IMG/VR virus record: IMGVR_UViG_3300042361_000498
DNA: 64,000 nucleotides
Reading direction: 5' to 3' (one strand)
From: a virus
Taxonomy: Duplodnaviria > Caudoviricetes
Positions 3,103 through 20,024 of the stretch are shown piece by piece; position 1 is the stretch's first letter; each line of letters starts with the position of its first letter. The position numbers and the translations under genes are program-made. The notes under the pieces were generated by a model that was not told the origin of the DNA, made no database searches, and was given only the letters and a program-made list of their open reading frames with translations.

Positions 3103-3774
3103 ATGAAAAATAATGTAACATCAATTGGTTTAAACGTTAGTGAGTTAGGTACTAACTTTCTATTGTTCATCGTATCTTCTATTGTAGCAATAGGATTATG
3201 TACTCAAGCATATTTTATATATCTTAATGTTTCTGGTAACAACGAAACTGCTAGAAACTTATCAACTAAATTTGATGAGAAGTTTAATGGGTATTACAAA
3301 AACACACCAGGCAACATATTCTATAATGATGATGATACAATATATCATATGGAAGAAAACGAAGTGTGGGTTGACGGTGTAACTAATCAAGTTAAAATTG
3401 GTAAGTTAGCCGGAAATCGTAATTTAGAATTTGGAGTTAAAAACATATTGGAAGAGTATATTCAGGAAACCGGATTTGCTCTAACTGAAAACGCAAGTAA
3501 AAAAATTAAAGTTGAGATAATATATTTAGATGTACTCACAACAAAAAAGAACATATCGGTTTTTCATAGTAATGAAGAAGAGGTAGTTATTCGTTTACGT
3601 GGAATGTTATATAAAGATGGTAAAAAAGTGAAAGATGTTATAGTGGAGGAATCATCATCGGAAGTATCAATGTCAACGCTGATAGTAGACGGTGGTGGTA
3701 AGTTCAATCAAACTTCTTTAAGCAATGCGCTGAAGAAAGGTTCTGGTAAACTTATTACTAAACTATTTCAGTAA
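3103..3774 (+). CDS. Membrane-anchored CsgG-like protein (paralogue of 10085-10804)
   Basis: N-terminal TM helix; GVKNILEEYI and KFNQTSLSNALKK match GVANISMEYL and KFNQSTIGTSTKK in the 10085 protein. Confidence 0.5.
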   Translation: MKNNVTSIGLNVSELGTNFLLFIVSSIVAIGLCTQAYFIYLNVSGNNETARNLSTKFDEKFNGYYKNTPGNIFYNDDDTIYHMEENEVWVDGVTNQVKIGKLAGNRNLEFGVKNILEEYIQETGFALTENASKKIKVEIIYLDVLTTKKNISVFHSNEEEVVIRLRGMLYKDGKKVKDVIVEESSSEVSMSTLIVDGGGKFNQTSLSNALKKGSGKLITKLFQ

Positions 3775-5400
3775 ATGAAAAATTTCTTATTGGCTGTGGT
3801 ACTTTCATTGGTATCACTTACATCTTTTGGTCAATTGATTATTAACCAAGAGGTAGTAAACTCAAAACCTTATAGAGTTGGTGATACACTAACTATAAGA
3901 TATAACATTATCAAAGGAACTACAAACCCTAGATACCTTTGGATGCGTTATCAATACTCAAACAAACACTTACAAAAATTAGGTCAAACTGTATTCTCAC
4001 AAGGACAAACTGCTCAAAACTTTGAAGCAACTTGGCCAAATTATATGTTTGGTCAAAATCCTACAATCGGAGTTGGTGAATTGGATAAACAATATGGTTC
4101 AACACCTTGGAACTATACCGCAAACAATGATTGGATAGCAAAGCAATTTACAACCCAAAGAGCGGATGCGGTAATTGATGGATTATGGGCAACTGAAAAG
4201 TATATCTTATTAGAAAATACATCTTATCAAGCAATACACAAATTGGATTTAGCAACTGCAACTGGAACAAACGATGCGGCAATCACACCAATTGGTTCTC
4301 AAGTTCTTCAATTATCATTTGCTACTGGAGATGTAAAATACGTTGCGGCATTTAGAGTAAAAGTTGGGTATCCATCCGGATTTAACCCTACATCATTATC
4401 TGTTTTAATTCAACCATTGAATACAGATGGAACTACTAATTTTACTGCTCCACAAATAGCAAAGAAAGCATTAAACTCAGCAGGAATTGCAGATTTTGAA
4501 CAATTTAACATTGGTGATAAGTTTGGAGTATATATTGTTCCAACTACTGGAGCAGATTACCTAAACAATGTGGTAACTGTTACGGATGCTTATAGAGCAT
4601 TCTTAGCAGTAACCGATGTTGGATTAAATGGAACATCATCAGTATTCCAGTATCCTGCAATTGAAAAGGTGATTGGTAATGTAACAATTGGTGATGGTGA
4701 TTTTAATACAAATGATGCTTATTATTTATTTGCACACATTTTAGGACAAGATGTTGCTTCAAAGGCAAATATAACAAGACAAGCGGCAAATCCATTACAA
4801 TTTATATCGGTAAAACAATCGGCATTTCCAAACTTTGCAGCTGCGGCAACTAACAATTCTGTTACTATTGCATCGGCAAATCAAACAGAATTGTTCTCTT
4901 ATGCGTTTAGTGGTGATTTGGATTTCTCTCACTCATCTAACCCTGGTAACCCAATAACGGCAAATAGTGTAGGTGGACAAGGAACAATGAATAGAACGAT
5001 AGCTAACACAGGTATCTACGCAAATCAAGTTACTAAAACTGCAACATTAAGTTTATCATCTAAAATTGAAAACAACAAAGTTATCCTAAGTGGTAACTTA
5101 ACACAAGAAGGATTGGCAGGTTTGGAAGTTATTTTGAAATACGATGACTCTAAATTAACTTTGGATGGTATTGTATTTGATGCTGGTTCAACTGTAACTA
5201 ACTTCTCAACTAACAAAGATGGTAGATTAACATTTGGTTCTATGGACCAAATTAAAACTGGTAGAATTAAAACTGGTACACCATACAAATTAACTTTCAC
5301 ATCTAATGTTCCTTTAACAAATACCGCTGGTTTATTCTATACTGAATTAGCAGATGCAGTTGATGGAAAAGGAAATAAGATTGGATTAAATGTAGAGTAA
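3775..5400 (+). CDS. Secreted protein with dockerin-like and C-terminal cohesin-like domains
   Basis: Sec signal peptide; duplicated dockerin-like helices TVTDAYRAFLAV and GDGDFNTNDAYYLFAHILG; cohesin-like GLAGLEVILKYDDSKLTL...LTFGSMD; possible second cohesin at the N-terminus (VGDTLTIRY...YQYSNKHL). Confidence 0.6.
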   Translation: MKNFLLAVVLSLVSLTSFGQLIINQEVVNSKPYRVGDTLTIRYNIIKGTTNPRYLWMRYQYSNKHLQKLGQTVFSQGQTAQNFEATWPNYMFGQNPTIGVGELDKQYGSTPWNYTANNDWIAKQFTTQRADAVIDGLWATEKYILLENTSYQAIHKLDLATATGTNDAAITPIGSQVLQLSFATGDVKYVAAFRVKVGYPSGFNPTSLSVLIQPLNTDGTTNFTAPQIAKKALNSAGIADFEQFNIGDKFGVYIVPTTGADYLNNVVTVTDAYRAFLAVTDVGLNGTSSVFQYPAIEKVIGNVTIGDGDFNTNDAYYLFAHILGQDVASKANITRQAANPLQFISVKQSAFPNFAAAATNNSVTIASANQTELFSYAFSGDLDFSHSSNPGNPITANSVGGQGTMNRTIANTGIYANQVTKTATLSLSSKIENNKVILSGNLTQEGLAGLEVILKYDDSKLTLDGIVFDAGSTVTNFSTNKDGRLTFGSMDQIKTGRIKTGTPYKLTFTSNVPLTNTAGLFYTELADAVDGKGNKIGLNVE

Positions 5401-7334
5401 TGAGAAAACTACTTGTTGTAATATTAATATTATTATCCAGTAGTATATCCATAGCACAATCCATTACACAACCGCTCTCTAAAAAGTTTGAATTAAACGT
5501 AAGTGGGCAGGCGTGTAGTGGATTTGTTTTGAATGGGTTTACTTCTACTGATATTTTATTGGCATCAATAGGGTTTATCAATCCACCCGCGGGTACAACA
5601 TTTAACATAACCACAACAACTGGTTTAACACCAGCATCTGGATTTACTTTAACTGGTAATAAAGCTAGATTAGTATTTACAGGTACACAAGCAAACATAA
5701 ATGCAGCATTAGCAACGTTAAGAATAAATACAGGTACAACTGCTGGTAGTGTTCAGATATCGGTATCGGCAACTGTAAATCCACCAGGATATTATTATAA
5801 TCCAATCAATGGACACTTTTATTTACCAGTAACTCCGGGAGCATCTTATACGGCAGCTAGAGCAGCATCTCTATTAACTACATTTAAAGGTCAAACGGGA
5901 TATTTGGTAACGATTACTTCTGCCGATGAAAATGCATTTATATTTGCTAATGTACCACAAGCTAATATATGGTTTGCGGCAACGGATGAAGTTAAAGATG
6001 GAACTTGGGTAATTGATGCTGGGCCTGAAAAGGGAACGATAATGAAAACATCAAATGGACAATTTACAGGAAACGTTTCGGATGTGTATAATAACTGGGC
6101 ACCTGGTGAACCAAATGGAAATAATGGTAGCGAAAATTATGCGGTAACAAATTGGAATGGACAATCAACTTGGAACGATTTATCAAATAATTGGACTAAT
6201 CCATACATAATTGAATATGGAACTTGGACTAACCCTAGTGCACAAACATTTACAAACTTCTTTTCGGCAAACGTAATAAACCCAATAGATGTACCAACCT
6301 CAAAGGTTAATTTTTATTTTGGTGGTGGTATAAATCCAGCACAATGGACAGTAAAAAGCTATACTGCAAATGGTACAACTGCTGTAAGTGCAACTACTGG
6401 TTTAGCTTTGGGAGCAAATGGTAGTGTAAATAACATTAGTGATTTTAACAAAACTAAAACGGATATGGTAATGTACCTATCCAAATTACCATCTACTACA
6501 TTATCTAATTTGTATGGAAGTGTATTAACTGTGGGAGATGCTTATTTAGCATTTCAAGAGTTAGCAAATAGAGGATTAAGTGGAACTGAAAGTAATACTT
6601 TTACAAGTGGAGTACAATTCTTAAACGCAGATGTGGATGGTAATAATATATTTAACGAATTGGATTCATATAGAATATTACAACACGTTATAGGTGGTAC
6701 ACCAATAGTTTCAACTTGGAGTGAAGATAATTTATTTAGGTTAATAAATAAAACTACATTTGATGGGATAACCAAAGCAAATTGGGCAACTATAAATGTA
6801 CCATACAAAGCAAACTATCCATTGGCAGTTGATGCTGGTATAAGTGATTATGTTTATAATGTGGTTGTTGCACCAAAGGGGGATGTAAACCTTTCACATA
6901 CAATAGCACAAAATAGACCGGCAACTCAAAGTACAAATCGTACAATGAATTTAAGTATGCCTATGGAAGTATCAACCTATGTATCAAGCGAAATAGTGGA
7001 TGGTAAGGTAGTAGTAACTATAAAAGTTAATACATTGGGGCAATTGGTAAAAGGGATTCAATTAAAGTTAAACTATGATAGTGATATTTTAAAATATGAA
7101 AATACCGAATATACAACTTCTGGTAATCCTTTAAACTTTTCAAATGATATTGGCAACTGCATAAGTTTTGGTTCTTTAATTTATAATAGTAATGGTTTAT
7201 TAAACAATAATACGGAATACAAATTAACATTTACACCAAAAGAAGTCATAACTAATACAATTGGTTTAACATCAATTGAGGGAATTGATGCGGTGAATGT
7301 GAGTGGTTCAACTCTTAAAATTAAAAACTTATAA
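5400..7334 (+). CDS. Secreted adhesin-like protein: cadherin-like + C-type lectin + dockerin-like + cohesin-like
   Basis: Signal peptide; LVFTGTQANINAALATL; NGHFY...GYLVTITSADENAFI...NNWAPGEPN...WNDL (C-type lectin); TVGDAYLAF...ADVDGNNIFNELDSYRILQHVIG; VKGIQLKLNYDSDILKYE. Confidence 0.7.
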   Translation: MRKLLVVILILLSSSISIAQSITQPLSKKFELNVSGQACSGFVLNGFTSTDILLASIGFINPPAGTTFNITTTTGLTPASGFTLTGNKARLVFTGTQANINAALATLRINTGTTAGSVQISVSATVNPPGYYYNPINGHFYLPVTPGASYTAARAASLLTTFKGQTGYLVTITSADENAFIFANVPQANIWFAATDEVKDGTWVIDAGPEKGTIMKTSNGQFTGNVSDVYNNWAPGEPNGNNGSENYAVTNWNGQSTWNDLSNNWTNPYIIEYGTWTNPSAQTFTNFFSANVINPIDVPTSKVNFYFGGGINPAQWTVKSYTANGTTAVSATTGLALGANGSVNNISDFNKTKTDMVMYLSKLPSTTLSNLYGSVLTVGDAYLAFQELANRGLSGTESNTFTSGVQFLNADVDGNNIFNELDSYRILQHVIGGTPIVSTWSEDNLFRLINKTTFDGITKANWATINVPYKANYPLAVDAGISDYVYNVVVAPKGDVNLSHTIAQNRPATQSTNRTMNLSMPMEVSTYVSSEIVDGKVVVTIKVNTLGQLVKGIQLKLNYDSDILKYENTEYTTSGNPLNFSNDIGNCISFGSLIYNSNGLLNNNTEYKLTFTPKEVITNTIGLTSIEGIDAVNVSGSTLKIKNL

Positions 7335-8233
7335 TGAAAAAGTTTATAATTACTCTTATCTTTATACTTACAGTACAAATGTGGGGATATTCTCAAACTG
7401 TATCAATACCGGATACTATGCAACTATCCGCAAAGGAATTATTTGATGAAAGTGATGATTGGAATGATTTGGGTATATTAGAATCTTATATTGATTTTTC
7501 AAAAGATGTTCTATCATCATCTAATCTATCAGTTGGTATAATTGGAAGGCAAGTATCAACTACTATAAATTTAGGATATAGTAAGTGGTCTAAAAATGGT
7601 ATGTATGGGCATTCATTTTCAACATCAATAAATCCAATATGGAAATACTATGGGTTGGGTTATGGATTTAGTAAAAATACGGATAAAAGAACAACAACTT
7701 TACAATCATTTTATTCAACCGATTTTGATTTTCAAAAAGATATTAACCTTTCATTCATAGATGTTTATAGAACTAAAAAGTGGGGAACATTTGGATATAG
7801 TTTAATAGCATCAAAAACATTTTGGGGTTCTTATGAGGGAGAATGGGAAGGAAAATATACAATAGATTCGGATGGCAACTTTTTAGATTTAATATATCCA
7901 ACTATTCCTGCATCATCTCAATTAACTTATAAAGGAATGTTGATGTACACTTATACATTTAAAACAAAGATGATTGATATATCGCCACAACTATTTGGTA
8001 TGAGTGATGTTTATGTAGATTTTAAAGATGGTACTGAATCTGATTTGGCTTATGTAAATGATTTCAATTTAGACTTGTATTATGGTACATCTTTGGATTG
8101 GAAAATAACTAAGAGATTCGTATTGAATACTAACATTAGATTTAATAAGACTTGGGATAGATTATCCGAATCCGCTGGTTATAAAAAGAGTAACCCAATA
8201 ATGTTTATGATTGGAACAAACTTTCAATTTTAA
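7334..8233 (+). CDS. Outer-membrane beta-barrel protein
   Basis: Signal peptide; alternating aromatic strands; BAM-type end FMIGTNFQF; GTSLDWKITKRF shared with the 18420 protein. Confidence 0.65.
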   Translation: MKKFIITLIFILTVQMWGYSQTVSIPDTMQLSAKELFDESDDWNDLGILESYIDFSKDVLSSSNLSVGIIGRQVSTTINLGYSKWSKNGMYGHSFSTSINPIWKYYGLGYGFSKNTDKRTTTLQSFYSTDFDFQKDINLSFIDVYRTKKWGTFGYSLIASKTFWGSYEGEWEGKYTIDSDGNFLDLIYPTIPASSQLTYKGMLMYTYTFKTKMIDISPQLFGMSDVYVDFKDGTESDLAYVNDFNLDLYYGTSLDWKITKRFVLNTNIRFNKTWDRLSESAGYKKSNPIMFMIGTNFQF

Positions 8234-8236
8234 GGT

Positions 8237-8581
8237 ATGAAGTGGAGTAAAATTATAATTTGGTGTTGTGTACTTTCTATAATATCTTGTCAAAACGAAG
8301 ATATGGTAGAGCCACAAATAATTGATATTTTTAAGGTAGAGCAATCTATGGTATCAAATAAAAGTGAAATTAGTTTTAATGTGCAAAAGGAAGGGATATA
8401 CATTGTAACTATGGTAGATAAAAATACCAATCAAGTTCTAAGTAGAGAAAAAATAAAATGTATTATAGGTAAAAATAAAATAAAGGTTTATACGAAAACA
8501 ATACCAAGTCAATATTTATATTTGACATTGGAAGATAGTTTTGATAATCAGTTAGGAAAAACAACAATAACAATAAAATAA
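8237..8581 (+). CDS. Lipoprotein consisting of a T9SS-CTD-like Ig domain
   Basis: Lipobox IIS-C then QNED; YIVTMVDKNTNQVL...IKVYTKTIPSQYLYLTL pattern. Confidence 0.55.
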   Translation: MKWSKIIIWCCVLSIISCQNEDMVEPQIIDIFKVEQSMVSNKSEISFNVQKEGIYIVTMVDKNTNQVLSREKIKCIIGKNKIKVYTKTIPSQYLYLTLEDSFDNQLGKTTITIK

Positions 8582-8583
8582 AG

Positions 8584-8955
8584 ATGAAAAAAGTATTAGG
8601 ATTATTAGCAATGATTTGCATAGTTGCAAGTTGTACCAATGAAGATTTGTTAGTACCAACAACAACGGAAGTAACTGAAAAATTACAAATAGTTGGCAAT
8701 ATGGGTATTAAAGTAGAAACTCCATTTGTAAAAAATGAAGTTGCTATGAATGTAAAAGCTGAAACTGCTGGAACATATGTAGTAAAGATATTAAACATAG
8801 CAAACAAATCAGTATCAAAAGAAGAAGTAACTATAAAAGCTGGTAACAATCTATTAAAGATTTATGCAAACGCTTTACCATCTTCAGCATATAGAATTGG
8901 TCTATTCGATTTAGAAGGAAACTTACTTGGGATAGCAGATTTTAACAAGTTATAA
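8584..8955 (+). CDS. Lipoprotein consisting of a T9SS-CTD-like Ig domain (paralogue of 8237)
   Basis: Lipobox VAS-C then TNED; ETPFVKNEVAMNV...VVKILNIANKSV...KIYANALPSSAYRIGL...FNKL parallels type A CTD YPNP...IYD..GK.V...L.SG.Y...K. Confidence 0.6.
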   Translation: MKKVLGLLAMICIVASCTNEDLLVPTTTEVTEKLQIVGNMGIKVETPFVKNEVAMNVKAETAGTYVVKILNIANKSVSKEEVTIKAGNNLLKIYANALPSSAYRIGLFDLEGNLLGIADFNKL

Positions 8956-8982
8956 TTAAAACAAATATAAATAAAGAATAAA

Positions 8983-9312
8983 ATGTCAGAGGAAACAGAA
9001 AACTCAGGAGGAGGTTCATTAAAGAGTATTTTAATTGGACTTGCTAGCACAATCGCATTGGGAGTTGGTGGTTATGTAACCAAGCAACTAACAGGTGAAA
9101 AAGATGAACCGGCAGCAGCAACATCAGCACCAGCACCGGTAATTAACATTACTAACTCAAACCAACAATCACAGAGAGCAGCCGGAGGCGGTGGAACTAA
9201 AGTGATTGAGAGAGTAATAGAAAAACCAGCAGCTCAAACTCAACCAGCACCTGCTCCTAAACCAAAGAAAAAAGAAGGAGACGAGTTCAAAGAAGAAAAA
9301 CCTCAATGGTAA
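8983..9312 (+). CDS. Single-TM protein with Pro/Ala-rich linker
   Basis: TM ILIGLASTIALGVGGYV; PAAATSAPAP and PAAQTQPAPAPKPKK segments. Confidence 0.7.
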   Translation: MSEETENSGGGSLKSILIGLASTIALGVGGYVTKQLTGEKDEPAAATSAPAPVINITNSNQQSQRAAGGGGTKVIERVIEKPAAQTQPAPAPKPKKKEGDEFKEEKPQW

Positions 9313-9318
9313 TATAAT

Positions 9319-9654
9319 ATGGAGAATCAACAACCTGATGGATTTAAGCAACTCTTAAATCAAATGATGAAACGTAGGTGGTTAATTACATTAATTGTGT
9401 TAATTACTTTTATGTTTACTACATTTGGAATTATGATTTCTATTCATATAGATACGGCTGTTGGACAAGAATGGAAAGAATTATTACTTTTATTATTAGG
9501 GGCATTTATTGGTTCTTATGGTAAAATTATAGATTACTGGTTTTCTGATACTGATAAAGATAAGATGTTAGTTCAGAAAATGGATGAAGAAGATGGAGTA
9601 TCTCTTTCAAATACCGGTGGAGCAGCAGAATCATCGGAAGAAGAATTAGGTTAA
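9319..9654 (+). CDS. Two-TM membrane protein with EEELG tail
   Basis: Two hydrophobic helices; ends AAESSEEELG. Confidence 0.75.
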   Translation: MENQQPDGFKQLLNQMMKRRWLITLIVLITFMFTTFGIMISIHIDTAVGQEWKELLLLLLGAFIGSYGKIIDYWFSDTDKDKMLVQKMDEEDGVSLSNTGGAAESSEEELG

Positions 9655-9728
9655 ATTTTATAATAATAAGTTATACCCAAATACGTTTTAATAATTGGTT
9701 ATATAAAATAACAATTAAATAAAAGATT

Positions 9729-10016
9729 ATGGGATTTTTTAAAGAATTATTCAGCGATGATAACCAAATCAATGAGAAATCAGTAGTTGGATTCGCATCA
9801 TTCGCAGTAATGGTAATATGTATCGCTGTTGATTTAGTGACTGGATATTTGGGAAAAGAATTAGTGATTAACGAATATGTGTTTAACGCATTTCTAACAC
9901 TAACATTAGGTTCATTTGGTATCGGTTCAGTTGATAAGTTTATCAACAAAAAAGCAGAAAACGATAAAGCTAAAATTGAAGCAGATAGTTCAACCGATGA
10001 GGAAGAATTAGGATAG
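9729..10016 (+). CDS. Two-TM membrane protein with EEELG tail (holin-like topology)
   Basis: Two hydrophobic helices; ends DSSTDEEELG. Confidence 0.75.
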   Translation: MGFFKELFSDDNQINEKSVVGFASFAVMVICIAVDLVTGYLGKELVINEYVFNAFLTLTLGSFGIGSVDKFINKKAENDKAKIEADSSTDEEELG

Positions 10017-10017
10017 T

Positions 10018-10052
10018 AAAAAAGGGAGAAAGTTTTTTTCTCCCTTTTTTTT
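10018..10052. terminator. Bidirectional intrinsic terminator
   Basis: A6-GGGAGAAA-gtttt-TTTCTCCC-T8. Confidence 0.85.
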
Positions 10053-10061
10053 ATATTTATA
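10053..10061 (+). promoter_or_regulatory. ATATTTATA putative late promoter
   Basis: Immediately after the terminator, 23 nt before the ATG at 10085. Confidence 0.6.
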
Positions 10062-10084
10062 CATAAACAAAAACAAATTTATGT

Positions 10085-10804
10085 ATGAAAAAATTATTAG
10101 GATTATTAAGTTTATGTTTGTTAAGCAGTGTTGCAATAGGACAAACGGTAGGTAAAACTCAAACGGAAAACTATAAAGCATCGTTTGAAACCAAAGTAGA
10201 CATTAGTGAGTTAATGGATTATGATGGACCTACTATTCCAGTACAAATACTTAAATGTGGAATCAGCGATGAAATTTTGGAACAGTATCCGGAACTTAAA
10301 GAGAAGAAGGTGGGCTTGGGTGTTGCTAATATATCTATGGAATACCTTGAAAATCTCAATCGTTTTACTTTTACTGAAGATAAGACAGAGCTGAAAAACA
10401 GAATGGTGAAGCAATTCCAAGCTTCTCAATCGGGTATCACTCAAGACAAATTAGATGGTAGAGGTAAAATACGTTTAGCGCATTACTTTGTTACAATCGA
10501 AGTATATGATTTCTCCGTTTCCGAAGATGAGACAGTTAATCTAAAAGATGGAGTAAAGAATAAGATGGTTACTCGTCTGGGTTTGCAAGTTCGTTTTACT
10601 GATGCCGAAACTGGTGAAGTATTTGGAGCAAGTGGTTTAGGTGAAGCAACTACAACCAGAGAGTTATCTTTAATATCAGATGCAACAATTGATGATGTTA
10701 AATTTAACCAATCAACAATCGGAACATCTACAAAGAAAGCATTAGATATTGCTTGTAGTAGAATTCTTCTTCGTATGATTAAGAAGGGGAAGTTCCCAAA
10801 ATAA
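10085..10804 (+). CDS. CsgG/HfaB-family protein
   Basis: Signal peptide; LGVANISMEYLENLNRFTFTE...AHYFVTIEVYDFS...RLGLQVRFTDAETGEVFGASGLGEA follows the CsgG sheet/helix pattern. Confidence 0.7.
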   Translation: MKKLLGLLSLCLLSSVAIGQTVGKTQTENYKASFETKVDISELMDYDGPTIPVQILKCGISDEILEQYPELKEKKVGLGVANISMEYLENLNRFTFTEDKTELKNRMVKQFQASQSGITQDKLDGRGKIRLAHYFVTIEVYDFSVSEDETVNLKDGVKNKMVTRLGLQVRFTDAETGEVFGASGLGEATTTRELSLISDATIDDVKFNQSTIGTSTKKALDIACSRILLRMIKKGKFPK

Positions 10805-10810
10805 TTTATT

Positions 10811-11552: not shown

Positions 11553-11861
11553 ATGTCAACAATAAGGGTTACATTATATGAAGATGAGGAAGTATTAGTG
11601 GAATGTGATTATCTTTTCAATAAAACTAAAATTGCTATGCATATAAGTTTTAATGAGGAAGTATGGTCACATTCTTTTTTTAAACGGATGATGGATATTT
11701 ATGAGGGTATTCTTCAAAACTTTAAGAATGAGGGTTATAACGAAATATACGGAGCACCCCCAAAAGGAAATATTAAAGCAAAGAAGTTAGCACAAATGTT
11801 TGGATTCAAAGATTGGTTTGAAAACAATGAGTTATACTTAATGAGAATGGAAATAAACTAA
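11553..11861 (+). CDS. Hypothetical protein, possible truncated GNAT-like fold
   Basis: GYNEIYG...GNIKAKKLAQMFGF recalls the GNAT N-x-x-A-x-x-L-x-x-x-x-GF motif. Confidence 0.4.
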   Translation: MSTIRVTLYEDEEVLVECDYLFNKTKIAMHISFNEEVWSHSFFKRMMDIYEGILQNFKNEGYNEIYGAPPKGNIKAKKLAQMFGFKDWFENNELYLMRMEIN

Positions 11862-11873
11862 ACAACTAAAATT

Positions 11874-12674
11874 ATGGGAAGCGCTGGAAAAGCAATCGAA
11901 AAGGCATTTGTAGATGCCGGAAATGCAATTAATGATAATGTTATTCAACCAATTGGAAATGCGGTGGTGGATGCGGGTAACGCAATTAATGATGCTGTTA
12001 TTCAACCAATGATTGGTGGTGTTAATACCGCAATTGGTAGTGTAGAAGATGCATACAACTATTCAGTAGCATTTGCTACCGATAGTGCACATAGAGTAGA
12101 AAGTGCAGCTTGTACTATTGCAAGTACTACCGAAGAATTTGCAAAGGTGGGGTTCGATGTGACTCAAAACGAATTTGTTCAATTATCTAAACAAGCTGAA
12201 CAACAAATCGTAGCGGGTGTTGAAATTGTGGCAGCAGGTGCGGTAGCTGCATACAATTGGGCAGATGCAAATGCTTGTACAATTGGAATAACTGCGGCAA
12301 TCTCTATGGGTTGTGTTGCAGCATTTACACCGGCTCAACCTGCTGGAGCAGCAACTTCAACCACATTGTCTTTAATGGCTACACCTGTTCTTTATACGGC
12401 AGATATGGCAGCTAAAATGGCAGTATCAACTGAAATGGGAAAAATAGTTGCTGATGGATTTTTATCAATACCCGGTGTTGGTGGAAATGTTGATACACAA
12501 TTATTAAGAAATGTATGCTCAAATTGTATCTATTATAGTTTAGATTCAGCTGCATTATGGGCAACGCCTGCTGGAGTTGGTATCGCAATCGGAGCTGCAG
12601 TAGCACCAGTTGTTGCATCTTTAGTATGTACTAGAACTTGCCCTAATGGATTTAGTAAAGCATTGGGTGCATAA
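11874..12674 (+). CDS. Ala/Gly/Cys-rich hydrophobic protein with N-terminal 19-aa repeat
   Basis: VDAGNAIND-VIQP repeated; long hydrophobic helices; several Cys (CSNC, CTRTC). Confidence 0.75.
   Translation: MGSAGKAIEKAFVDAGNAINDNVIQPIGNAVVDAGNAINDAVIQPMIGGVNTAIGSVEDAYNYSVAFATDSAHRVESAACTIASTTEEFAKVGFDVTQNEFVQLSKQAEQQIVAGVEIVAAGAVAAYNWADANACTIGITAAISMGCVAAFTPAQPAGAATSTTLSLMATPVLYTADMAAKMAVSTEMGKIVADGFLSIPGVGGNVDTQLLRNVCSNCIYYSLDSAALWATPAGVGIAIGAAVAPVVASLVCTRTCPNGFSKALGA
11910..12010 (+). repeat. Two-copy 57-nt-period coding repeat
   Basis: gt(a/g)gatgc-gg-aa-gcaattaatgat--tgttattcaaccaat at 11910 and 11967. Confidence 0.8.
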
Positions 12675-12681
12675 TACAAAC

Positions 12682-12696: not shown

Positions 12697-12732
12697 TACT
12701 AAAAGTATAATTTTATTAAGGTAGTTTCCTAT

Positions 12733-12760
12733 ATATTGATGAAAATTAAAACATCAATAT
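12733..12760. promoter_or_regulatory. 9-bp inverted repeat overlapping the TonB receptor start codon
   Basis: ATATTGATG-n10-CATCAATAT; right arm includes AT of the ATG at 12759. Confidence 0.4.
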
Positions 12761-15242
12761 GAGGAAACTACTTTTATTATTAACGTTACTAATTCCTACA
12801 ATATCCTTTTCACAAACCTTATCGGGTAAAACAAAATCAAATAAAGAAGAACTCATTGGAGTTACAATTTGGCTAACTAACAAAGATACAAATAAAAAAG
12901 TTGGAAGTACATCTGATATTGAATCCAAATATCAATTCCAAAATGTAGTAGTTGGAAACTATTCAATTAAAGCATCATTTGTTGGATATAAAGAATACAC
13001 AAAAGATATTACAATTAATGGAGATACCAATTTAGATATCCTAATTGAAGAAGATACAAAGGTATTGCAAGAAGTTGTGGTAAAGCAAGTAGCAAAGAAA
13101 GAAACTGCAACTGCACTTATCAATACACTTAAAGCATCTTACATTGTAGCAGATGGTTTATCAATTGAATCAATAAAGAAAACACCAGATAGAACTGTTG
13201 GAGATGCACTTAAAAGAGTTAGTGGTGTAACAATCCAAAACGATAAGTTTGTTTTAGTTAGAGGTTTAGCTGATAGATACAACTTGGCTCTACTAAACAA
13301 ATCAATCCTACCATCAACCGAACCTGATAGAAGAGCATTCTCATTTGATATTATCCCAACATCACTAATAGATAATATCATCATCAACAAAGGAGCATCT
13401 GCAAACCTACCCGGTGATTTCGCAGGAGGTTTAGTACAAATAACAACAAAAGAAGTTAGTGGTGATTTCTTTAATATATCATTGGGGGGCAGTTGGGGTT
13501 CACTATCAACGGGACAGGATTTTAGGTTGGTAGACGCTATACAATTCCCAACATCATTTCCATCAACAAATGGATATAGAATTGCGGGATTAGGTGATAG
13601 AAGAGCATACACTAAACTAATAGGTTCTCCGCAAACCGAAACATCAACATCTATTCCAAACTTAAATGGTAACTTATCATTTGGTGTTGTTAAAAACAAA
13701 TGGAACATCTTATTCAGTTCAACTGCAAGAAACACATACTCTGCCAACACAACTAAAAGAATTGATTACCAATCATCAACTGAATTAGCATACAACTATA
13801 AAGACCAGAACTATTCAAATGTACAATCATTAAATGGATTATTAAATATAGTTTATTTAGGTGAGAATCGTTATAGTTGGAAAACACTTGCTAACTACCA
13901 AAACGAAAAATCATTTTTAAGTAGAGTTGGTGAGAACTACGATAATGTTCAGTATGTAGATAGTAAATCATCCAACTCAATTCAAAAGTTAGTATTCAAT
14001 ACACAATTCGAAGGTAAGTTTAAAACATTTGATTTTAATTTAGGATACAATCTTATGTTAAGAGACCAGCCCGATTATAGAGTAACACCTTACATATCAT
14101 CTTTATATACAACAACTCCTTACTCAATAGCATGGAGAGACACGTATCGTTTTTGGAGTGTAATGGATGAAAACTCATTCAATGGGGGATTGAACAAATC
14201 CATAGGAGATGTTCGTTTAGGAGTGGGTTACTTGAAGAAATTTAGAAACTTCAAAGCAAGAATATTCAGATACGAATCAACTGATTTATTAAATGAGATT
14301 ACAAACAATACTGATAGATATACTGCCGATTTTGATTTGGCAAATGCATATGTGATGTATGAAAAAGAAATTGATAAATTAAAAATAAACACAGGTTTTA
14401 GAACGGAATACAATTTATTTAAAGTTCAAACATCTGATTTTGGTGGACAACGGATTTCAGTAGATAGAGAGTATTTGGATTTACTACCATCATTAAACGC
14501 AACCTATTCTACATCGGAAAAAAAAAAGGTTAGATTATCCGTAAGTAAAACATTAGCAAGACCAGAGTTTAGAGAGGTAGCTAATTTTGCATATTATGAT
14601 TTTGTTAGAAACGCACAACTATTAGGAAATCCAAACTTACAAAAAACGGATATATTCAATTCAGATATAAAGTTTGAGTTGTATCCTAAATCAGGTGAGA
14701 ACATATCAATCGGTTTCTTTGGTAAAAAGTTCTTCAATCCAATTGAGCAAGTTGTAGCAGATGGTTCAGTTCCATCAAACCTTTTACTAACATATAAAAA
14801 CCCAAAAGAAGCATTGGTATATGGAGTTGAGATTGAACTTCGTAAGAAATTAAATGATTGGATAGATTTATATTCAAACACATCGTTTATCAATTCGGAA
14901 GTACAAATCGGTTCAGTAAAAAGACAATTGCAAGGACAATCAAACTATGTAGTAAATGGTGGATTGAACTTACATAAAAACAACAATACATTCAACATAT
15001 CATACAATAGAGTTGGAGATAGAATATCAGCAGTAGGATTTCAAGGATACCCTGATATATTTGAAAACTCTCGTGATGTAGTTGATATTGTTATTCTTCG
15101 TAAAATTAAAAACGGAGAAATTAAATTAGCAGTATCGGATATATTCAGACAACCATTTGAGTATTATCAAAAACCAAATAGAACTTTAATTAAAACAAAC
15201 AACGAAACAACAGTTTCACTAACACTAAATTACAACCTATGA
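12759..15242 (+). CDS. TonB-dependent receptor with N-terminal carboxypeptidase-regulatory-like domain
   Basis: Signal peptide; GNYSIKASFVGY; LQEVVV TonB-box region; plug DALKRVSGVT...VRGLADRYN...DIIP..LIDNIIINKG...FAGGLVQITTK; barrel ending VSLTLNYNL. Confidence 0.93.
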   Translation: MRKLLLLLTLLIPTISFSQTLSGKTKSNKEELIGVTIWLTNKDTNKKVGSTSDIESKYQFQNVVVGNYSIKASFVGYKEYTKDITINGDTNLDILIEEDTKVLQEVVVKQVAKKETATALINTLKASYIVADGLSIESIKKTPDRTVGDALKRVSGVTIQNDKFVLVRGLADRYNLALLNKSILPSTEPDRRAFSFDIIPTSLIDNIIINKGASANLPGDFAGGLVQITTKEVSGDFFNISLGGSWGSLSTGQDFRLVDAIQFPTSFPSTNGYRIAGLGDRRAYTKLIGSPQTETSTSIPNLNGNLSFGVVKNKWNILFSSTARNTYSANTTKRIDYQSSTELAYNYKDQNYSNVQSLNGLLNIVYLGENRYSWKTLANYQNEKSFLSRVGENYDNVQYVDSKSSNSIQKLVFNTQFEGKFKTFDFNLGYNLMLRDQPDYRVTPYISSLYTTTPYSIAWRDTYRFWSVMDENSFNGGLNKSIGDVRLGVGYLKKFRNFKARIFRYESTDLLNEITNNTDRYTADFDLANAYVMYEKEIDKLKINTGFRTEYNLFKVQTSDFGGQRISVDREYLDLLPSLNATYSTSEKKKVRLSVSKTLARPEFREVANFAYYDFVRNAQLLGNPNLQKTDIFNSDIKFELYPKSGENISIGFFGKKFFNPIEQVVADGSVPSNLLLTYKNPKEALVYGVEIELRKKLNDWIDLYSNTSFINSEVQIGSVKRQLQGQSNYVVNGGLNLHKNNNTFNISYNRVGDRISAVGFQGYPDIFENSRDVVDIVILRKIKNGEIKLAVSDIFRQPFEYYQKPNRTLIKTNNETTVSLTLNYNL

Positions 15243-16441
15243 AAAAATTATTAGTATTGTTCGCAAGTTTAACAATCTTTGGATGTTCTAAAGATTTGGG
15301 TGGAGAAGTTACACCAATCAATGTACCAACCTCAACAACTTTGAGTGGTAATATCACATCAACTACAACTCTTACATCGGATAAAGAGTGGGTATTAAAA
15401 GGATATGTTTATGTAACCGATGGTGCTAAAGTTATCATTCAACCTGGCACAATTATCAAATCTGATATAAGTGAGAAAGGTGCATTGTGTATTGAAAGAG
15501 GAGCACAAATTGTAGCAGAAGGTACTGCATCAAAACCAATCATATTTACATCTGGTAGACCCGCAGGAGAAAGAACTCCCGGTGATTGGGGTGGTATTGT
15601 AATATTGGGTAGAGCAAAAACCAATAGAACATCCGAACCAACTATCGAAGGTGGTATTGGTAGAGCATATGGTGGAACAAACGATTTAGATAATAGTGGT
15701 ATCTTAAAATATGTTCGTATTGAATACGCTGGTATTGCGGCAATGCCAAACTCTGAAATCAACGCATTAACATTGGGTGGTGTTGGTAGTGGAACAATCA
15801 TTGAGAATGTTCAAACTATCTACGCTAACGATGATGCATTTGAGTTCTTTGGTGGAACTGTAAATGCAAAAAACTTATACGCATATGGAACTGCGGATGA
15901 TGATTTTGATTTTGATTTTGGATATAGAGGTAAAGTATCTAATTCAGTTTCTAAAAGAGACCCACAATTTGTAGATAATGGTGATGCAGGAAATGGTGTA
16001 GAGTGTGATAATGATGGTACAGGTTCATCAGCAGAACCATTCACACATCCTATATTAGATGGTGTAATTTTAATTGGACCAAATGATGCAGCATCTTTAC
16101 CAAACCATAATTTAGCAATGAGATGGAGAAGAGCAACTCAATTTGAGGTTTACAATTCTACAATCATTGGATATATGAAAGGTGGGTTCTCAATGGAAAG
16201 TAACGAAACTGCACAATTCTACAAAGATGGTGTAAGTAAATTTCAGAACAACAAAATTGGTTCATTTAATTTATTAAACTTTATCAGTAAAGCAACTACT
16301 ATTATTACATCTGATGCGGTTAAAACAAAGGCGTTGAGTGAGGGTAATACTGAAATAACTTTAACTGCTAGTGAAATAGAAACTTTATCTAAACCAAATT
16401 GGACGAATGGTTGGACAAAATTCCCAACAAAAGGAAATTAA
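15239..16441 (+). CDS. Beta-helix lipoprotein, partner of the TonB receptor
   Basis: Lipobox IFG-C; GDWGGIVILGRA, DNSGILKYVRIEYAG, NDDAFEFFGG, ADDDFDFDFGY repeats; ATGA overlap with the receptor. Confidence 0.75.
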   Translation: MKKLLVLFASLTIFGCSKDLGGEVTPINVPTSTTLSGNITSTTTLTSDKEWVLKGYVYVTDGAKVIIQPGTIIKSDISEKGALCIERGAQIVAEGTASKPIIFTSGRPAGERTPGDWGGIVILGRAKTNRTSEPTIEGGIGRAYGGTNDLDNSGILKYVRIEYAGIAAMPNSEINALTLGGVGSGTIIENVQTIYANDDAFEFFGGTVNAKNLYAYGTADDDFDFDFGYRGKVSNSVSKRDPQFVDNGDAGNGVECDNDGTGSSAEPFTHPILDGVILIGPNDAASLPNHNLAMRWRRATQFEVYNSTIIGYMKGGFSMESNETAQFYKDGVSKFQNNKIGSFNLLNFISKATTIITSDAVKTKALSEGNTEITLTASEIETLSKPNWTNGWTKFPTKGN

Positions 16442-16481
16442 ATGATAACAATAATATAACAATAGAAAGAATATAATTGTG

Positions 16482-16490
16482 ATATTTATA
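16482..16490 (+). promoter_or_regulatory. ATATTTATA putative late promoter
   Basis: 20 nt before the ATG at 16511. Confidence 0.6.
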
Positions 16491-16510
16491 TATACAAACT
16501 AAACAAATAA

Positions 16511-17551
16511 ATGTCATCCTCAAAAACCCTGTTTATATTAAAAAGAAAACAAAACTATAATCTTTCAACCGATTATAGTATTGGTTTAAGTACCGGCCTG
16601 TACAATTCAGCTCAATTTATGAATCAAATGCTATTAGATGGCGGGTTTGATTCTCAAATGGTAGTTGTAAATGATAATAACGATATAGATAGAGAAGTAA
16701 CTCTACACAAACCAACCCACGTTATTATTGAAGCTCTTTGGGTTGTTCCATCTAAATTCGAAGTTCTTTGCAAATTACATCCAAACGTTAAATGGGTAAT
16801 TCGCTTACATAGCGAAATACCATTTTTAGCAAATGAAGGAATGGCAATGGATTGGATTGGGGAATATAGTAAATTTGATAATATTATTATTTCTTGCAAC
16901 TCACCACAAACTACCAAAGATATTGAGTTTTATATGAGTACAAAATTAGGTATTAAAAAACATATAGATTTTTTACCAAATTTTTATCCACAACAATACA
17001 AAACTAAATCATTCAATAAGAAAGGTGATACGATTCACATAGGATGTTTTGGTGCAATTAGACCTCTAAAAAATCATCTTATACAAGCATTTGCAGCAAT
17101 TAAGTTTGCAGATGAAATTGGTAAAAAATTACATTTCCATATCAATTGCGATAGAGTTGAACAAAAAGGAGAACCAATATTAAATAACTTAATAAGTATG
17201 TTCAATCATTTGGAACATAAAGGTCATAAGTTAGTTCATCATGAGTGGAGTGTTAGAGAGCAATTTATTCAATTATGTTCTACGATGGATATTGGAATTC
17301 AGATATCATTTAATGAAACTTTTAATATTGTAGGAGCTGATATAGTTTCACAAGGAGTTCCTTTGGTATCTTCACCTGAAATCCCTTGGGCTAATTCATT
17401 ATTTACTGCAAGACAAACTAATACTGATGATATTGTAGATTCACTATTATGTACTTACGCATATCCAAAAATAAATGTATTATTAAATCAAAGGGGTCTT
17501 GAAAAATATACAAATAAAACAAAACATATTTGGTTTAAGTTTTTCAAATGA
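16511..17551 (+). CDS. GT-B glycosyltransferase (GT4-like)
   Basis: IGCFGAIRPLKNHL...DIGIQISFNETFNIVGADIVSQGVPLV (variant of the E-x7-E motif). Confidence 0.75.
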   Translation: MSSSKTLFILKRKQNYNLSTDYSIGLSTGLYNSAQFMNQMLLDGGFDSQMVVVNDNNDIDREVTLHKPTHVIIEALWVVPSKFEVLCKLHPNVKWVIRLHSEIPFLANEGMAMDWIGEYSKFDNIIISCNSPQTTKDIEFYMSTKLGIKKHIDFLPNFYPQQYKTKSFNKKGDTIHIGCFGAIRPLKNHLIQAFAAIKFADEIGKKLHFHINCDRVEQKGEPILNNLISMFNHLEHKGHKLVHHEWSVREQFIQLCSTMDIGIQISFNETFNIVGADIVSQGVPLVSSPEIPWANSLFTARQTNTDDIVDSLLCTYAYPKINVLLNQRGLEKYTNKTKHIWFKFFK

Positions 17552-17559
17552 TATTTATA
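17551..17559 (+). promoter_or_regulatory. ATATTTATA putative late promoter
   Basis: 20 nt before the ATG at 17580, supporting 17580 rather than 17499 as the start. Confidence 0.55.
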
Positions 17560-17579
17560 GTTATAAAATAATTATAGCT

Positions 17580-18389
17580 ATGAAACAAATATTATTATTT
17601 TTTTTGTTATTACCAACATTATTGTTAGGGCAGATATCCTCTTGGAGAAGTGGTGCAACAACCGCACCACAACAAAGGAGTAGTGTAAATGTACCATCCA
17701 ATAGAGAATACTCACAACCAAATCGTAATGATAATGTGAGTAGATGGAGAAGTACACCACAATATAGGCAATATCCAAACACACCATATTTTCGTAATAG
17801 AGAAGTTTGGGTAGGTGGGATGTACCCTTGGTTTAATGGATTTGGATATTACAATATGTATCCATATTATTTCTATGATGATTTTGGATATAGACAAAGA
17901 GGTAGAGTTCGTATCTATAACGATGGTAAGAGGGATACTATAAGTGTTAAACCAATGCGTTGGGCATTTGGTTTACAAACATCAAAAGGTAATCAAATTG
18001 GTGGTTGGTTGGCAATAGGACATGTAAACTATGTCTTATTAGAATACCAGCAAACAAATCAAATACATTCAGCATCTTATTTCCCACTTGGACATTTAGG
18101 TATTGTTGATTTTCCATTAGTAGAAGATTGGATATCTAACAAAGTATTCTACGCAGGTATTGGTAAGAGGTATGGTAGAAACGGAATGCACATATCTTTG
18201 GGTTTGGGAAATGAAGAAGTAAGATTTCAGGGAAAAGATAAAATAGGATACATAACATTCCCAAAATATAATTCGGACTTTATGACAATGAAATTTGGTA
18301 TAATACACGACTTCAAATATGTTACTCTTAAATTAGATTATGACCCTATACGAAGAAATGGTATTGTTGGGGCTGGTATAAATCTGTAA
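17580..18389 (+). CDS. Exported protein: Arg/Tyr/Gly-rich disordered region plus small C-terminal beta-barrel
   Basis: Signal peptide MKQILLFFLLLPTLLLG; YYNMYPYYFYDDFGY region; amphipathic strands ending GIVGAGINL. Confidence 0.65.
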   Translation: MKQILLFFLLLPTLLLGQISSWRSGATTAPQQRSSVNVPSNREYSQPNRNDNVSRWRSTPQYRQYPNTPYFRNREVWVGGMYPWFNGFGYYNMYPYYFYDDFGYRQRGRVRIYNDGKRDTISVKPMRWAFGLQTSKGNQIGGWLAIGHVNYVLLEYQQTNQIHSASYFPLGHLGIVDFPLVEDWISNKVFYAGIGKRYGRNGMHISLGLGNEEVRFQGKDKIGYITFPKYNSDFMTMKFGIIHDFKYVTLKLDYDPIRRNGIVGAGINL

Positions 18390-18419
18390 GTTACACTTTT
18401 TAATCAAAACAGCATATGA

Positions 18420-20024
18420 TTGAAAAAGTTAAAAGTTTTATTAAGTGTATTATTCATATTCTGTCTAGCTTCCAAAGCTAACGGACAAACAACATTTACA
18501 CAAACATTTATAGATAAGTGTACTGGAGAAGTAAAACTCGCCACTACTACTTATGTCAACGGAAGAGCATTTGTATCTTTCTATGACCAAATGAGAGTAT
18601 TTACACCGGATGAAGTTACAAGTGGTGTAATGCAAATGTGGTTACAATCCGTATATGTTGCATATTCAACGCAAGGGTGTGCTACAAACCAGGTAGTACA
18701 ACAAACTATACAACAAACAGTAAACCAAGCAGTTCAGCAGGCAGCAGCTCAAGCGGCTCAACAAGCAGCTTCGGCAGCAGCAACACAGGCTGCATCTCAA
18801 GCAGCTTCGGCAGCAGCTTCGCAAGCAGCCTCATCAGCAGCAGCTTCAGCAGCACAATCAGCCGCAAGTTCAGCTGCATCATCTGCCGCTTCTTCTGCAG
18901 CAAGTTCAGCTGCAAGTTCAGCTGCATCATCTGCCGCTTCTTCTGCGGCTAGTGGAGCGGCTTCATCGGCAGCTGGTTCTGCCGTTAGTGGAGCAGCAGC
19001 TTCGGCAGCTGGTGCCGCAGTACCACCACCCCCACCAACCCCATCCGCACCTGCTCCTTCTGCTTCGGCTCCGTCTGGTGGAGGTTCAACCACACCGGCA
19101 TCAAATAGTTCTTCTGGTGGAGGAAGTGGCGGTAGTAGTTCATCACCAAAAGCAGAAGCAAAAGCAGAAGCTAAAGCTGAAGCAAAAGCAGAAGCTAAAT
19201 CCGAAAGTAAGAGTGAATCTAAATCAGAATCAAAATCCGAAAGTAAGAGTGAGGAAAAGAAAGAAGAAACTAAATCGGAATCTAAAAAAGAAGAGAAGAA
19301 AGAAGAATCTAAAAAGGAGGAAAAGAAAGAGGAGAAAAAAGAAGAAAAGAAAAAAGAAAAAATAGCACCAATAAATCCATTATTATTAGCATCGGATTTA
19401 AGTGTAGTAGAATCATCTCCATCTAAATTTGATGCTATCTTAACAACCGGTGTATCTCGTTCATCAATGGCTGGGGATGAAAGTTATTCAGCAACATCTA
19501 TGATATGGAGTAACTTAAAACAATTTGCAGTAAGTGGTGGTTATACTAAAATGAACTTTAAAGATGGCTCATTGAATTCTATGAACTCATACTCCGTAAC
19601 TGGAGCATATCTAAATAGAACCTATATGAGTTTGGTTGGATTGACCGTAATTATACCAAACCCAAATATTGGTGTATATGGATATAATGTTGGTTTAGTT
19701 AATTTATTCTCACCAAAAGCAGATGGTGGATATGGATATAGTGTAAGTAATTCTGGTGTTGTATTTTGGACTAAACCATATCAAACTACAAAAAAACTAA
19801 CTCTTTCACCACAAATATTTACAATGTTACCTGGTGGTAGTTGGGATACAACTAACGGAGAATTCACTTATAGTTCTGATGTTGGGTTTTTATTGGGTAC
19901 TTCAATTGATTACAAAATCAGTAAACGTTTTGGATTTAGTTTTAATTACAAAATCAATACGTCTACTGCTGCAGGGGCTCCGATATTAAGTAACTTTTTA
20001 ATTGGTTCTAGATTGATGCTTTAA
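18420..20024 (+). CDS. Outer-membrane protein with long low-complexity stalk and C-terminal beta-barrel (paralogue of 7334)
   Basis: TTG start, signal peptide; Q/A, (SAAS)n, poly-Pro, (AEAK)n, (SESK)n, (EEKK)n; barrel GTSIDYKISKRF...FLIGSRLML. Confidence 0.7.
   Translation: MKKLKVLLSVLFIFCLASKANGQTTFTQTFIDKCTGEVKLATTTYVNGRAFVSFYDQMRVFTPDEVTSGVMQMWLQSVYVAYSTQGCATNQVVQQTIQQTVNQAVQQAAAQAAQQAASAAATQAASQAASAAASQAASSAAASAAQSAASSAASSAASSAASSAASSAASSAASSAASGAASSAAGSAVSGAAASAAGAAVPPPPPTPSAPAPSASAPSGGGSTTPASNSSSGGGSGGSSSSPKAEAKAEAKAEAKAEAKSESKSESKSESKSESKSEEKKEETKSESKKEEKKEESKKEEKKEEKKEEKKKEKIAPINPLLLASDLSVVESSPSKFDAILTTGVSRSSMAGDESYSATSMIWSNLKQFAVSGGYTKMNFKDGSLNSMNSYSVTGAYLNRTYMSLVGLTVIIPNPNIGVYGYNVGLVNLFSPKADGGYGYSVSNSGVVFWTKPYQTTKKLTLSPQIFTMLPGGSWDTTNGEFTYSSDVGFLLGTSIDYKISKRFGFSFNYKINTSTAAGAPILSNFLIGSRLML
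18864..18946 (+). repeat. Coding tandem repeat within the Ser/Ala stalk
   Basis: 35-nt gcaagttcagctgcatcatctgccgcttcttctgc at 18864-18898 and 18912-18946, with a 12-nt partial copy between. Confidence 0.9.

Follow-up and report, generated by a model that had tools for sequence, protein, structure and literature searches.

Among lytic phages of aquatic habitats, the pelagimyophages of the HTVC008M group and the Methylophilales phage Melnitz carry csgG/csgF 'curli-like' genes (PMC7029224, PMC9004378). The function of these genes is unknown, and roles in 'sibling capture' or in the timing of lysis have been proposed (PMC7029224, PMC9004378). A phage of Bacteroidota, 'Cryophage', encodes proteins with the C-terminal sorting domain of the T9SS (type IX secretion system), which are presumably exported by the host (PMC7468147). 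The present analysis concerns a block of cell-envelope genes in a stretch of 64,000 nucleotides (the window) from IMG/VR virus record IMGVR_UViG_3300042361_000498 (Duplodnaviria; Caudoviricetes), corresponding to bases 56730-120729 of this 133-kb record, which was judged to be ~70% complete. As in the pelagimyophages and Melnitz, a CsgG-family gene occurs here in an aquatic lytic phage in the absence of curli subunit genes. However, those phages encode a recognisable CsgG pore together with CsgF and infect Proteobacteria, whereas the window encodes a CsgG relative that has neither a lipid anchor nor membrane hairpins, gives no match to CsgF, and belongs to a set of ~10 genes for lectin/cohesin proteins, barrels and lipoproteins in phages of Bacteroidota. 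No paper on this module was found in the literature. There is, in our estimate, about an even chance that the set is a late-expressed surface-display or anchoring module.

The block lies within the 133-kb viral contig and is thus phage-encoded, as had been claimed in a preliminary description of the DNA, and all of the open reading frames (ORFs) reported there are present. The G+C content is ~31%, and the plus strand carries nearly all genes, including every feature given below. Genes and their products are designated by the window position of the first base. Although the preliminary description extended a single apparatus over 3103-20024, the core of the module is 3103-10804 plus 18420-20024; the core is conserved, but the segment 10811-17551 consists of variable inserts and lies outside the conserved module. 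Nine consecutive ORFs occupy 3103-10016 with gaps of -1 to +27 nt plus a single gap of 74 nt, and are followed by a terminator-like hairpin with a T-run (10018-10050), which would end the first transcription unit, and then by 10085. From 3775 through 9319 the spacing is -1 to +6 nt, in agreement with the translational coupling proposed earlier.

All core products carry an export or membrane signal, be it a signal peptide, a lipobox or a transmembrane segment. Cleavable signal peptides were found in 3775, 5400, 7334, 10085 and 18420, as well as in the variable member 17580; 3103 is anchored in the membrane by its N-terminus, a lipobox is found in 8237 and 8584, and transmembrane segments number one in 8983 and two each in 9319 and 9729. 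As previously suggested, the predicted locations comprise the inner membrane, the periplasm, the outer membrane and probably the surface. The set had also been described as five pairs of paralogues. Statistical support was obtained for three of these, 3775/5400, 8237/8584 and 7334/18420, but paralogy could not be demonstrated for 3103/10085 or for 9319/9729.

The gene order is conserved across related phages. Relatives of 10085 are encoded on 526 IMG/VR stretches, on contigs of up to 335 kb, and the core order 3103-3775-5400-7334-8237-8584-8983-9319-(9729)-10085 recurs, remaining constant in over a hundred fetched loci. Co-occurrence was assessed in the 116 loci that hold both 3103 and 10085, where 8983 is present in 109, 3775 and 9319 in 105 each, the 8237/8584 lipoproteins in 82, 7334 in 70, and 9729 in 63, i.e. 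in about half. A reduced module consists of 3103, a single cohesin protein, 8983, 9319, 10085 and an 18420-like barrel, without the lipoproteins. A reduced module is also found in a cultured phage, immuto, which infects Flavobacterium sp. LMO8; there (gp013-gp018) the genes for a lectin, a hypothetical protein, a cohesin protein, and 8983-like, 10085-like (52.7% identity) and 18420-like products lie in a row among replication genes and not among tail genes. Across relatives, the membrane and periplasmic parts are 66-78% identical, and the heads and lipoproteins 40-57%. A megablast search of the block against GenBank phages gave no match. At least 84% of the sampled words from 3000-10900 were present in 17 runs of lake-water metagenomes, belonging to 17 studies, and four of these runs may represent the source sample; in two metatranscriptome runs the share of these words was only 8%, and no conclusion on transcription was drawn.

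The product of 10085 (10085-10804) is a secreted, non-lipidated CsgG-family protein and, together with 7334, the most conserved member of the module (median identity 78%). In a search of the structure predicted with AlphaFold2 (predicted local distance difference test score, pLDDT, 78.6), the top Foldseek matches were CsgG entries 4uv3 and 4uv2 with a probability of 1.0, and VIA-align superimposed 173 residues on CsgG with a Z-score of 13.1 and a root mean square deviation of 3.1 Å. The same alpha/beta fold is common to the CsgG curli channel, PelC, LptE, PqiC and FlgT, of which PelC (Z 9.8) and LptE, PqiC and FlgT (Z ~8-9) were lower-scoring matches; the language-model neighbours of 10085 were clusters of CsgG/HfaB. 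Although 10085 itself gave no match in Pfam at E 0.1, two homologues exceed the CsgG (PF03783) cut-off of 20.8 bits (P0129, 24 bits; P0150, 45.8 bits), and a chromosomal CsgG-family protein of Ignavibacteriales, which is 38% identical to 10085, scored 28.6 bits. A profile search of the 10085 family against PDB sequences produced nothing useful. A profile search over 1.8 billion representatives retrieved only 266 related clusters. Among 185,579 species genomes scanned there were only four relatives, namely the Ignavibacteriales protein and three that lie on short contigs (2.6-9.1 kb) with the same gene order as in the phages.

The preliminary description had taken 10085 and 3103 for a pair of CsgG-like outer-membrane pores, and this was not supported. 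CsgG differs from 10085, which has an ordinary signal peptide that stops just ahead of QT(I/V)G and, as judged by the 15 aligned relatives, neither a lipobox nor any conserved Cys. The two amphipathic beta-hairpins with which CsgG builds its 36-strand membrane barrel were not recognised in 10085 when model and sequence were read without a topology predictor: the equivalent of the first is a hairpin at residues 134-173 whose tip (~143-163) is charged or polar on both faces, and that of the second is a low-confidence loop of 14 residues (195-208). Because there is no lipobox, and the hairpin positions are taken by a charged tip and a 14-residue loop, 10085 was concluded from the model to be a soluble periplasmic member of the CsgG family, and a CsgG-type pore is unlikely. 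No curli family was among the Pfam matches for any gene of the block, and a match to CsgF was likewise not found. Most of the CsgG-fold relatives (PelC, LptE, PqiC and FlgT) are lipoproteins that assemble into rings and dock beneath or within conduits of the outer membrane. As in the pairs PelC-PelB and LptE-LptD, 10085 is encoded beside outer-membrane barrels, although the barrels of PelB and LptD have 16-26 strands and those of the window a predicted 12.

For the other member of the proposed pair, 3103 (3103-3774), the leads are weaker. This 223-aa protein has an N-terminal membrane anchor and a domain of ~130 aa that may be related to LptE, Lipoprotein_16 and CsgG, and its relatives occur in two forms, one of ~165 aa with a signal peptide and one of ~215 aa with an anchor. 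The Lipoprotein_16 match is sub-threshold (20 bits; cut-off 25), language-model neighbours scored no higher than 0.87, and the profile gave only chance-level matches among PDB sequences. BLAST found nothing between 3103 and 10085, and alignment of 3103 with the 10085 family by hhalign reached a probability of 90% over 25 columns only with a deeper alignment and 4% with a shallower one. The 25 columns correspond to a strand-helix motif typical of the CsgG/LptE-like fold. Overall, the proposed pair is upheld only in part.

Distant cellular relatives of 10085 (P0095, P0112, P0116 and P0150; locus L163) carry a fused caspase (Peptidase_C14) or Ser/Thr kinase domain or are encoded beside a caspase gene. 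This arrangement suggests that, in proteins of signalling or cell death, the CsgG-like domain has a further use as a periplasmic module.

The proteins that may be displayed are the products of 3775 (3775-5400) and 5400 (5400-7334), paralogues whose C-terminal ~350 aa align with a BLASTP E value of 9e-15. The former is a secreted modular protein of 541 aa with a variable N-terminal head, an EF-hand-like helical segment and a C-terminal cohesin-like domain. In the latter, a secreted protein of 644 aa, the head is a C-type lectin domain (PF00059; residues 165-270), which scored 24.6 bits against a cut-off of 22.6 and 26-30 bits in relatives, and is followed by the same two elements; immuto gp013 aligns to this lectin domain. 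The second protein of one relative is 885 aa long with lectin plus LCCL heads, and what had appeared to be three paralogues in relatives ('3775 + 5400 + 5400') proved to be this one longer protein. The claim of a cohesin domain is supported in part. Pfam Cohesin (PF00963) was matched by 5 of 22 family members, the family profile matched the PDB cohesin 4ums with E 0.008, and immuto gp015 is annotated as a cohesin-domain protein, but all of the Pfam matches are sub-threshold, the best scoring 22.7 bits against a cut-off of 24.1.

A dockerin (PF00404) had also been reported for both proteins. None was found when 22 excised segments were searched with Pfam at E 1 and the PDB was searched with profiles; an EF-hand loop is legible by eye only in the second repeat of 5400. 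The polymer proposed earlier depends on this domain, which the profile searches failed to recover. The modules share with cellulosome cohesin-dockerin scaffolds the C-terminal cohesin-like domain, known from sub-threshold Pfam matches, but differ from them in having neither a profile-detectable dockerin nor carbohydrate-active enzymes. These results bear on the machine originally proposed, a hetero-oligomeric assembly across the envelope with mixed rings of paired paralogues and with CsgG-like pores through which a lectin-bearing dockerin-cohesin polymer would be exported. Three pairs are true paralogues, 10085 has the fold of a superfamily rich in ring formers, and components are predicted in every layer of the envelope. 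However, 10085 lacks the lipobox and has a charged segment in place of the first hairpin and a loop of 14 residues in place of the second; the paralogy of 3103 and 10085 is not demonstrable, no dockerin was detected, and the reduced modules make do with a single cohesin protein and a single barrel and have no lipoproteins. Such a machine appears quite improbable.

The type-A T9SS C-terminal sorting domain (CTD; PF18962) was not matched in 3775 or 5400. In a relative with a reduced module (L060), the cohesin protein ends in a T9SS CTD (32 bits, residues 549-625), and on this sequence evidence the cohesin protein of reduced modules is a predicted cargo of the host T9SS. The reduced modules thereby resemble the T9SS cargo of Cryophage, whereas the cohesin proteins of the window are untagged and two free-standing CTD-like lipoproteins are present instead.

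These lipoproteins, encoded by 8237 (8237-8581; 114 aa) and 8584 (8584-8955; 123 aa), are paralogues with a BLASTP E value of 2e-11, as had been claimed. In 8237, acidic residues follow the lipid-bearing Cys, and profile matches indicate a small beta-sandwich resembling DUF3244 or the T9SS CTD. In 25 relatives the lipobox Cys never varies, and behind it come motifs of the K/N-D/E-D type (QNED, TNED, YKDD, TKDD). An acidic export signal after the lipobox Cys marks surface-exposed lipoproteins in Bacteroidota. The earlier label of CTD-like is borne out at the level of the family, with matches to DUF3244 in 13 and to Por_Secre_tail in 10 of the 25 members, but 8584 itself is sub-threshold (PF18962, 20.1 bits; cut-off 27) and its match does not lie at the C-terminus. 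A profile search of the family against PDB sequences gave nothing useful. The lipoproteins have no detectable similarity to the T9SS tags of relatives, and the idea that they are such tags split from the cohesin proteins was rejected, as 132 ORFs for cohesin proteins contained no match to a hidden Markov model of the lipoproteins, even with a limit of E 10. The lipoproteins and 7334 are both missing from all 8 loci whose cohesin protein is tagged, but this exclusivity is weak evidence, because 7 of the 8 tagged ORFs have near-identical scores and coordinates and are probably near-duplicates.

The two barrels form the third pair. The product of 7334 (7334-8233) is an outer-membrane protein with a C-terminal Phe, modelled as a beta-barrel of 12 strands (pLDDT 69.6). 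That of 18420 (18420-20024) consists of a signal peptide, an N-terminal domain of ~80 aa with two Cys, a low-complexity spacer of ~220 aa and a C-terminal barrel (residues 319-534) homologous to 7334. The pairing was confirmed by BLASTP (E 1.6e-5) and by a joint alignment that spans the barrel in full, with SPQ-F, GTFGY and KRF as invariant columns. Neither Pfam nor a homologue search assigned 7334, the former giving no match and the latter close relatives only. The two-Cys domain of 18420 is conserved among relatives, as is the other end of the protein, whereas the spacer differs in length and composition; in the window (18950-19370) it comprises Ala/Ser/Gln repeats, a Pro-rich part and a Gly/Ser part, followed by KAEA, KSES and KKEE repeats that resemble a charged single alpha-helix. 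In reduced modules, the 18420-like gene lies directly 3' of the 10085 homologue.

The 12 strands of the 7334 model are shared with the beta-domains of autotransporters (EspP, NalP, BrkA) and with FapF, and the order of N-terminal domain, long spacer and C-terminal barrel in 18420 is theirs also. The best structural matches of 7334 were NanC, FapF, BrkA and EspP (TM-scores 0.40-0.52) and atlas clusters of autotransporters (0.62), with intimin beta-domains also among them. However, the window barrels match no Pfam family, TM-scores of 0.40-0.62 are low, and porins of the same size, solute porins among them, match equally well. A self-contained apparatus, installed by the phage in the infected cell, may nonetheless be envisaged, in which a periplasmic ring of 10085 beneath FapF/autotransporter-like barrels is tied to the inner membrane by 8983 and 9319, and by which lectin-cohesin adhesins would reach the surface independently of the host T9SS. 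We give this only a small chance.

Three small proteins are predicted in the inner membrane. The bitopic 8983 (8983-9312) consists, as reported, of a transmembrane helix and a Pro/Ala-rich periplasmic tail with conserved short motifs (PVINIT, KTVIIK and KKKEGDEFKEE-P-W), in which the terminal Trp is invariant. Of the two-transmembrane proteins, 9319 (9319-9654) belongs to a family that is 71% conserved, and 9729 (9729-10016; 95 aa) has an acidic tail. They had been paired because both have two transmembrane segments and end in EEELG, which is correct, but they are only 26% identical and the hhalign probability is 2.9%. In comparison with its relatives, which are ~200 aa long, 9319 of the window is shorter by ~100 aa and lacks a conserved zinc-ribbon-like cytoplasmic tail with Cys/His residues, HRxCEHxWGDxDxDGxxECxKCG (compare L154:11965-12642). 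The EEELG end is therefore peculiar to the window phage, and the short form may have arisen by recombination with 9729 or by truncation.

Small membrane proteins of this kind would also suit a device for lysis or egress, in which 9319 and 9729 act like holins, while bridging or weakening of the envelope falls to 8983, the lipoproteins, the barrels and the CsgG-family protein, in place of spanins, which are seldom recognised in Bacteroidota phages. Both 9319 and 9729 have charged tails, 8983 is bitopic with its N-terminus in the cytoplasm and reaches the periplasm, and a lysis-timing role for phage CsgG/CsgF was put forward for Melnitz (PMC9004378). The promoter-like motif described below, being common to this block and virion genes, also suggests late expression. 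Against this, no endolysin is encoded in 3103-20024, the lysins of the phage are separate (24046-26894), and the endolysin of immuto lies ~8 kb from the module. PHROGs gave no holin or spanin match for 8237-10016, no coiled coil is present in 8983, and the lipoproteins, which the reduced modules do without, are folded beta-sandwiches of ~95 aa and not short Pro-rich o-spanins. The lectin and cohesin proteins, moreover, have no obvious role in lysis. A lysis device is accordingly considered unlikely, although it is one of the two main rivals of surface display.

The 'late motif' of the preliminary description is real, ATATTTATA being present 24 times on the plus strand and twice on the minus strand of the 133-kb contig. 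At 12 of the 16 sites in the window it lies 26-37 nt upstream of an ATG. The genes behind it include 10085, 16511 and 17580, together with genes for proteins of 1787, 2056 and 1204 aa in the structural region, and the positions listed ahead of start codons are 10053, 16482, 17551, 21794, 26917, 33592, 39013, 40998, 42012, 47206, 55151, 58848 and 59256. The copy at 10053-10061 is 32 nt ahead of the ATG of 10085, whereas that at 3018-3026 is 85 nt ahead of 3103, at an atypical spacing and inside a weak hairpin. ATATTTATA is probably a phage-specific, possibly late, promoter element, unlike the Bacteroidota housekeeping consensus. It is read as a mark of late genes because it is common to the large structural and virion genes, and its distribution suggests late co-expression of the module with the virion genes.

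The same motif, and the location of the block just upstream of baseplate/tail-like genes, could be taken to mean that the products belong to the virion, for example as fibres or decoration proteins, and merely look exported. However, signal peptides, lipoboxes, barrels ending in Phe of the BAM type and two-transmembrane proteins are untypical of the virions of tailed phages, and in immuto the module is placed among replication genes. This explanation is extremely improbable.

Surface display or anchoring is favoured because of the lectin heads, the cohesin-like end, the T9SS tags of relatives, the surface-type lipoproteins and the greater divergence of those parts for which exposure is predicted. 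In the mechanism proposed, the host Sec pathway would export the module products into the envelope of the infected Bacteroidota cell, probably late, and the output would be the display at the surface of modular proteins that combine variable glycan-binding heads with a constant cohesin-like end. An anchoring or translocation platform is probably provided by the two surface-type lipoproteins, by the 12-stranded barrels 7334 and 18420, the latter with its long spacer, by the small inner-membrane proteins 8983, 9319 and 9729, and by soluble periplasmic 10085, which may form a ring or plug beneath a barrel, as do PelC, LptE and PqiC. In relatives with reduced modules, the tagged cohesin protein would leave the cell through the host T9SS. 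The phage could benefit from adhesion or aggregation of infected cells and debris, or from masking of receptor glycans at the surface. The proposal builds on gene content, export signals, the folds of 10085 and 7334, conservation and the common promoter-like motif.

Several points weigh against it. The 3775 and 5400 proteins themselves have no Pfam Cohesin match, those of their relatives all fall below the cut-off, and neither Pfam nor PDB profile searches detected a dockerin. Since the cohesin proteins of the window bear no T9SS tag, they could remain in the periplasm. The surface exposure of 8237 and 8584 is predicted from the general Bacteroidota rule on acidic export signals, and the late timing from a single shared motif. 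The fetched loci are interrelated and, having come from two anchor searches, partly duplicated, so that the counts over the 116 loci overstate independence. Physical association of the products, their exposure at the surface, late timing and the benefit to the phage are what we infer from these data.

The segment between 10085 and 18420 is occupied by genes of a different standing. A class-3 lipase without a signal peptide (10811-11551; 105.6 bits) is a variable insert adjoining 10085, and is followed by a variable ORF of 102 aa (11553-11861) and by an Ala/Gly-rich membrane protein of 266 aa with several hydrophobic segments and no family match (11874-12674). Homologues of the latter change place in relatives, being found in the 8584/8983 or the 5400/7334 interval, as if mobile, and at the lipase hot spot one relative (L154) has a family 2 glycosyltransferase (GT2) and a metallophosphoesterase. 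A cassette at 12759-16441, present in ~20 of the 116 related loci, encodes a TonB-dependent-receptor-like barrel and an overlapping lipoprotein of 400 aa. The product of 12759 has the features of TonB-dependent receptors (Plug, 36.8 bits; OMP_b-brl_3, 86.2 bits; CarbopepD_reg_2, 49.6 bits), although its score against TIGR01782 (180.8 bits) is below the cut-off of 310; among GenBank phages the TonB-type barrel matched 5 records, one of them a 635-kb uncultured phage. The 400-aa lipoprotein is PF28492 in a precomputed table, and a search with it gave at least 7930 candidates at E ≤ 1e-5 among 8000 scored. A homologue search with 15239 found close relatives only.

Two further genes of this segment have ATATTTATA upstream. 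The first (16511-17551) is a rare insert encoding a cytoplasmic protein of 346 aa with a faint glycosyltransferase-like match. The second (17580-18389), with the motif 29 nt upstream, is a variable member downstream of 10085; its product, probably located in the outer membrane, has a signal peptide, a segment rich in Arg, Gln, Pro and Tyr and a beta-rich C-terminal half. The lipase, the Ala/Gly-rich protein, the TonB-type receptor with its lipoprotein and the glycosyltransferase-like gene each occur in a minority of loci and at shifting positions. Because these cassettes are found in few loci and at varying positions, the range 3103-20024 mixes core and inserts.

An alternative is that the block is a cluster of independent envelope 'morons' without mutual assembly, serving exclusion, receptor blocking or nutrient uptake and grouped by a common promoter and a hot spot for insertion. 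Receptor blocking by individual envelope proteins of phages has precedents, T5 Llp and lambda Lom/Bor among them, and unrelated cassettes (lipase, TonB-type receptor with lipoprotein, glycosyltransferases, phosphoesterase, Ala/Gly-rich protein) have been inserted at several sites of the block. However, the order of the core genes is kept down to 52% identity and in the different neighbourhood of immuto, the 8983-like, 10085-like and 18420-like genes are adjacent even on short fragments, and starts and stops overlap tightly between genes. The cluster of morons is rather improbable.

Just beyond the block, at 20344-21778, a protein of 208 aa with an N-terminal membrane anchor is encoded by an ORF that overlaps one of 278 aa by 29 nt. 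Neither has a family match; the pair is flanked by the module and the baseplate-like genes, and may act in lysis or assembly.

Lytic phages are commonly assumed to spare the host envelope until lysis. Here, about ten genes for envelope proteins have been retained across an abundant family of lake and marine Bacteroidota phages. As the cultured pair of Flavobacterium sp. LMO8 and immuto carries the reduced module, the question is directly testable. If the module proved to be a lysis device instead, it would take the place of the spanins missing from Bacteroidota phages, and a self-contained apparatus would be an outer-membrane protein-export system of a new kind, and one first encountered in a virus. 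If adhesins are displayed, as proposed, effects would be expected on the aggregation of cells and particles, on encounters between progeny and hosts, and on the flow of carbon in lakes.

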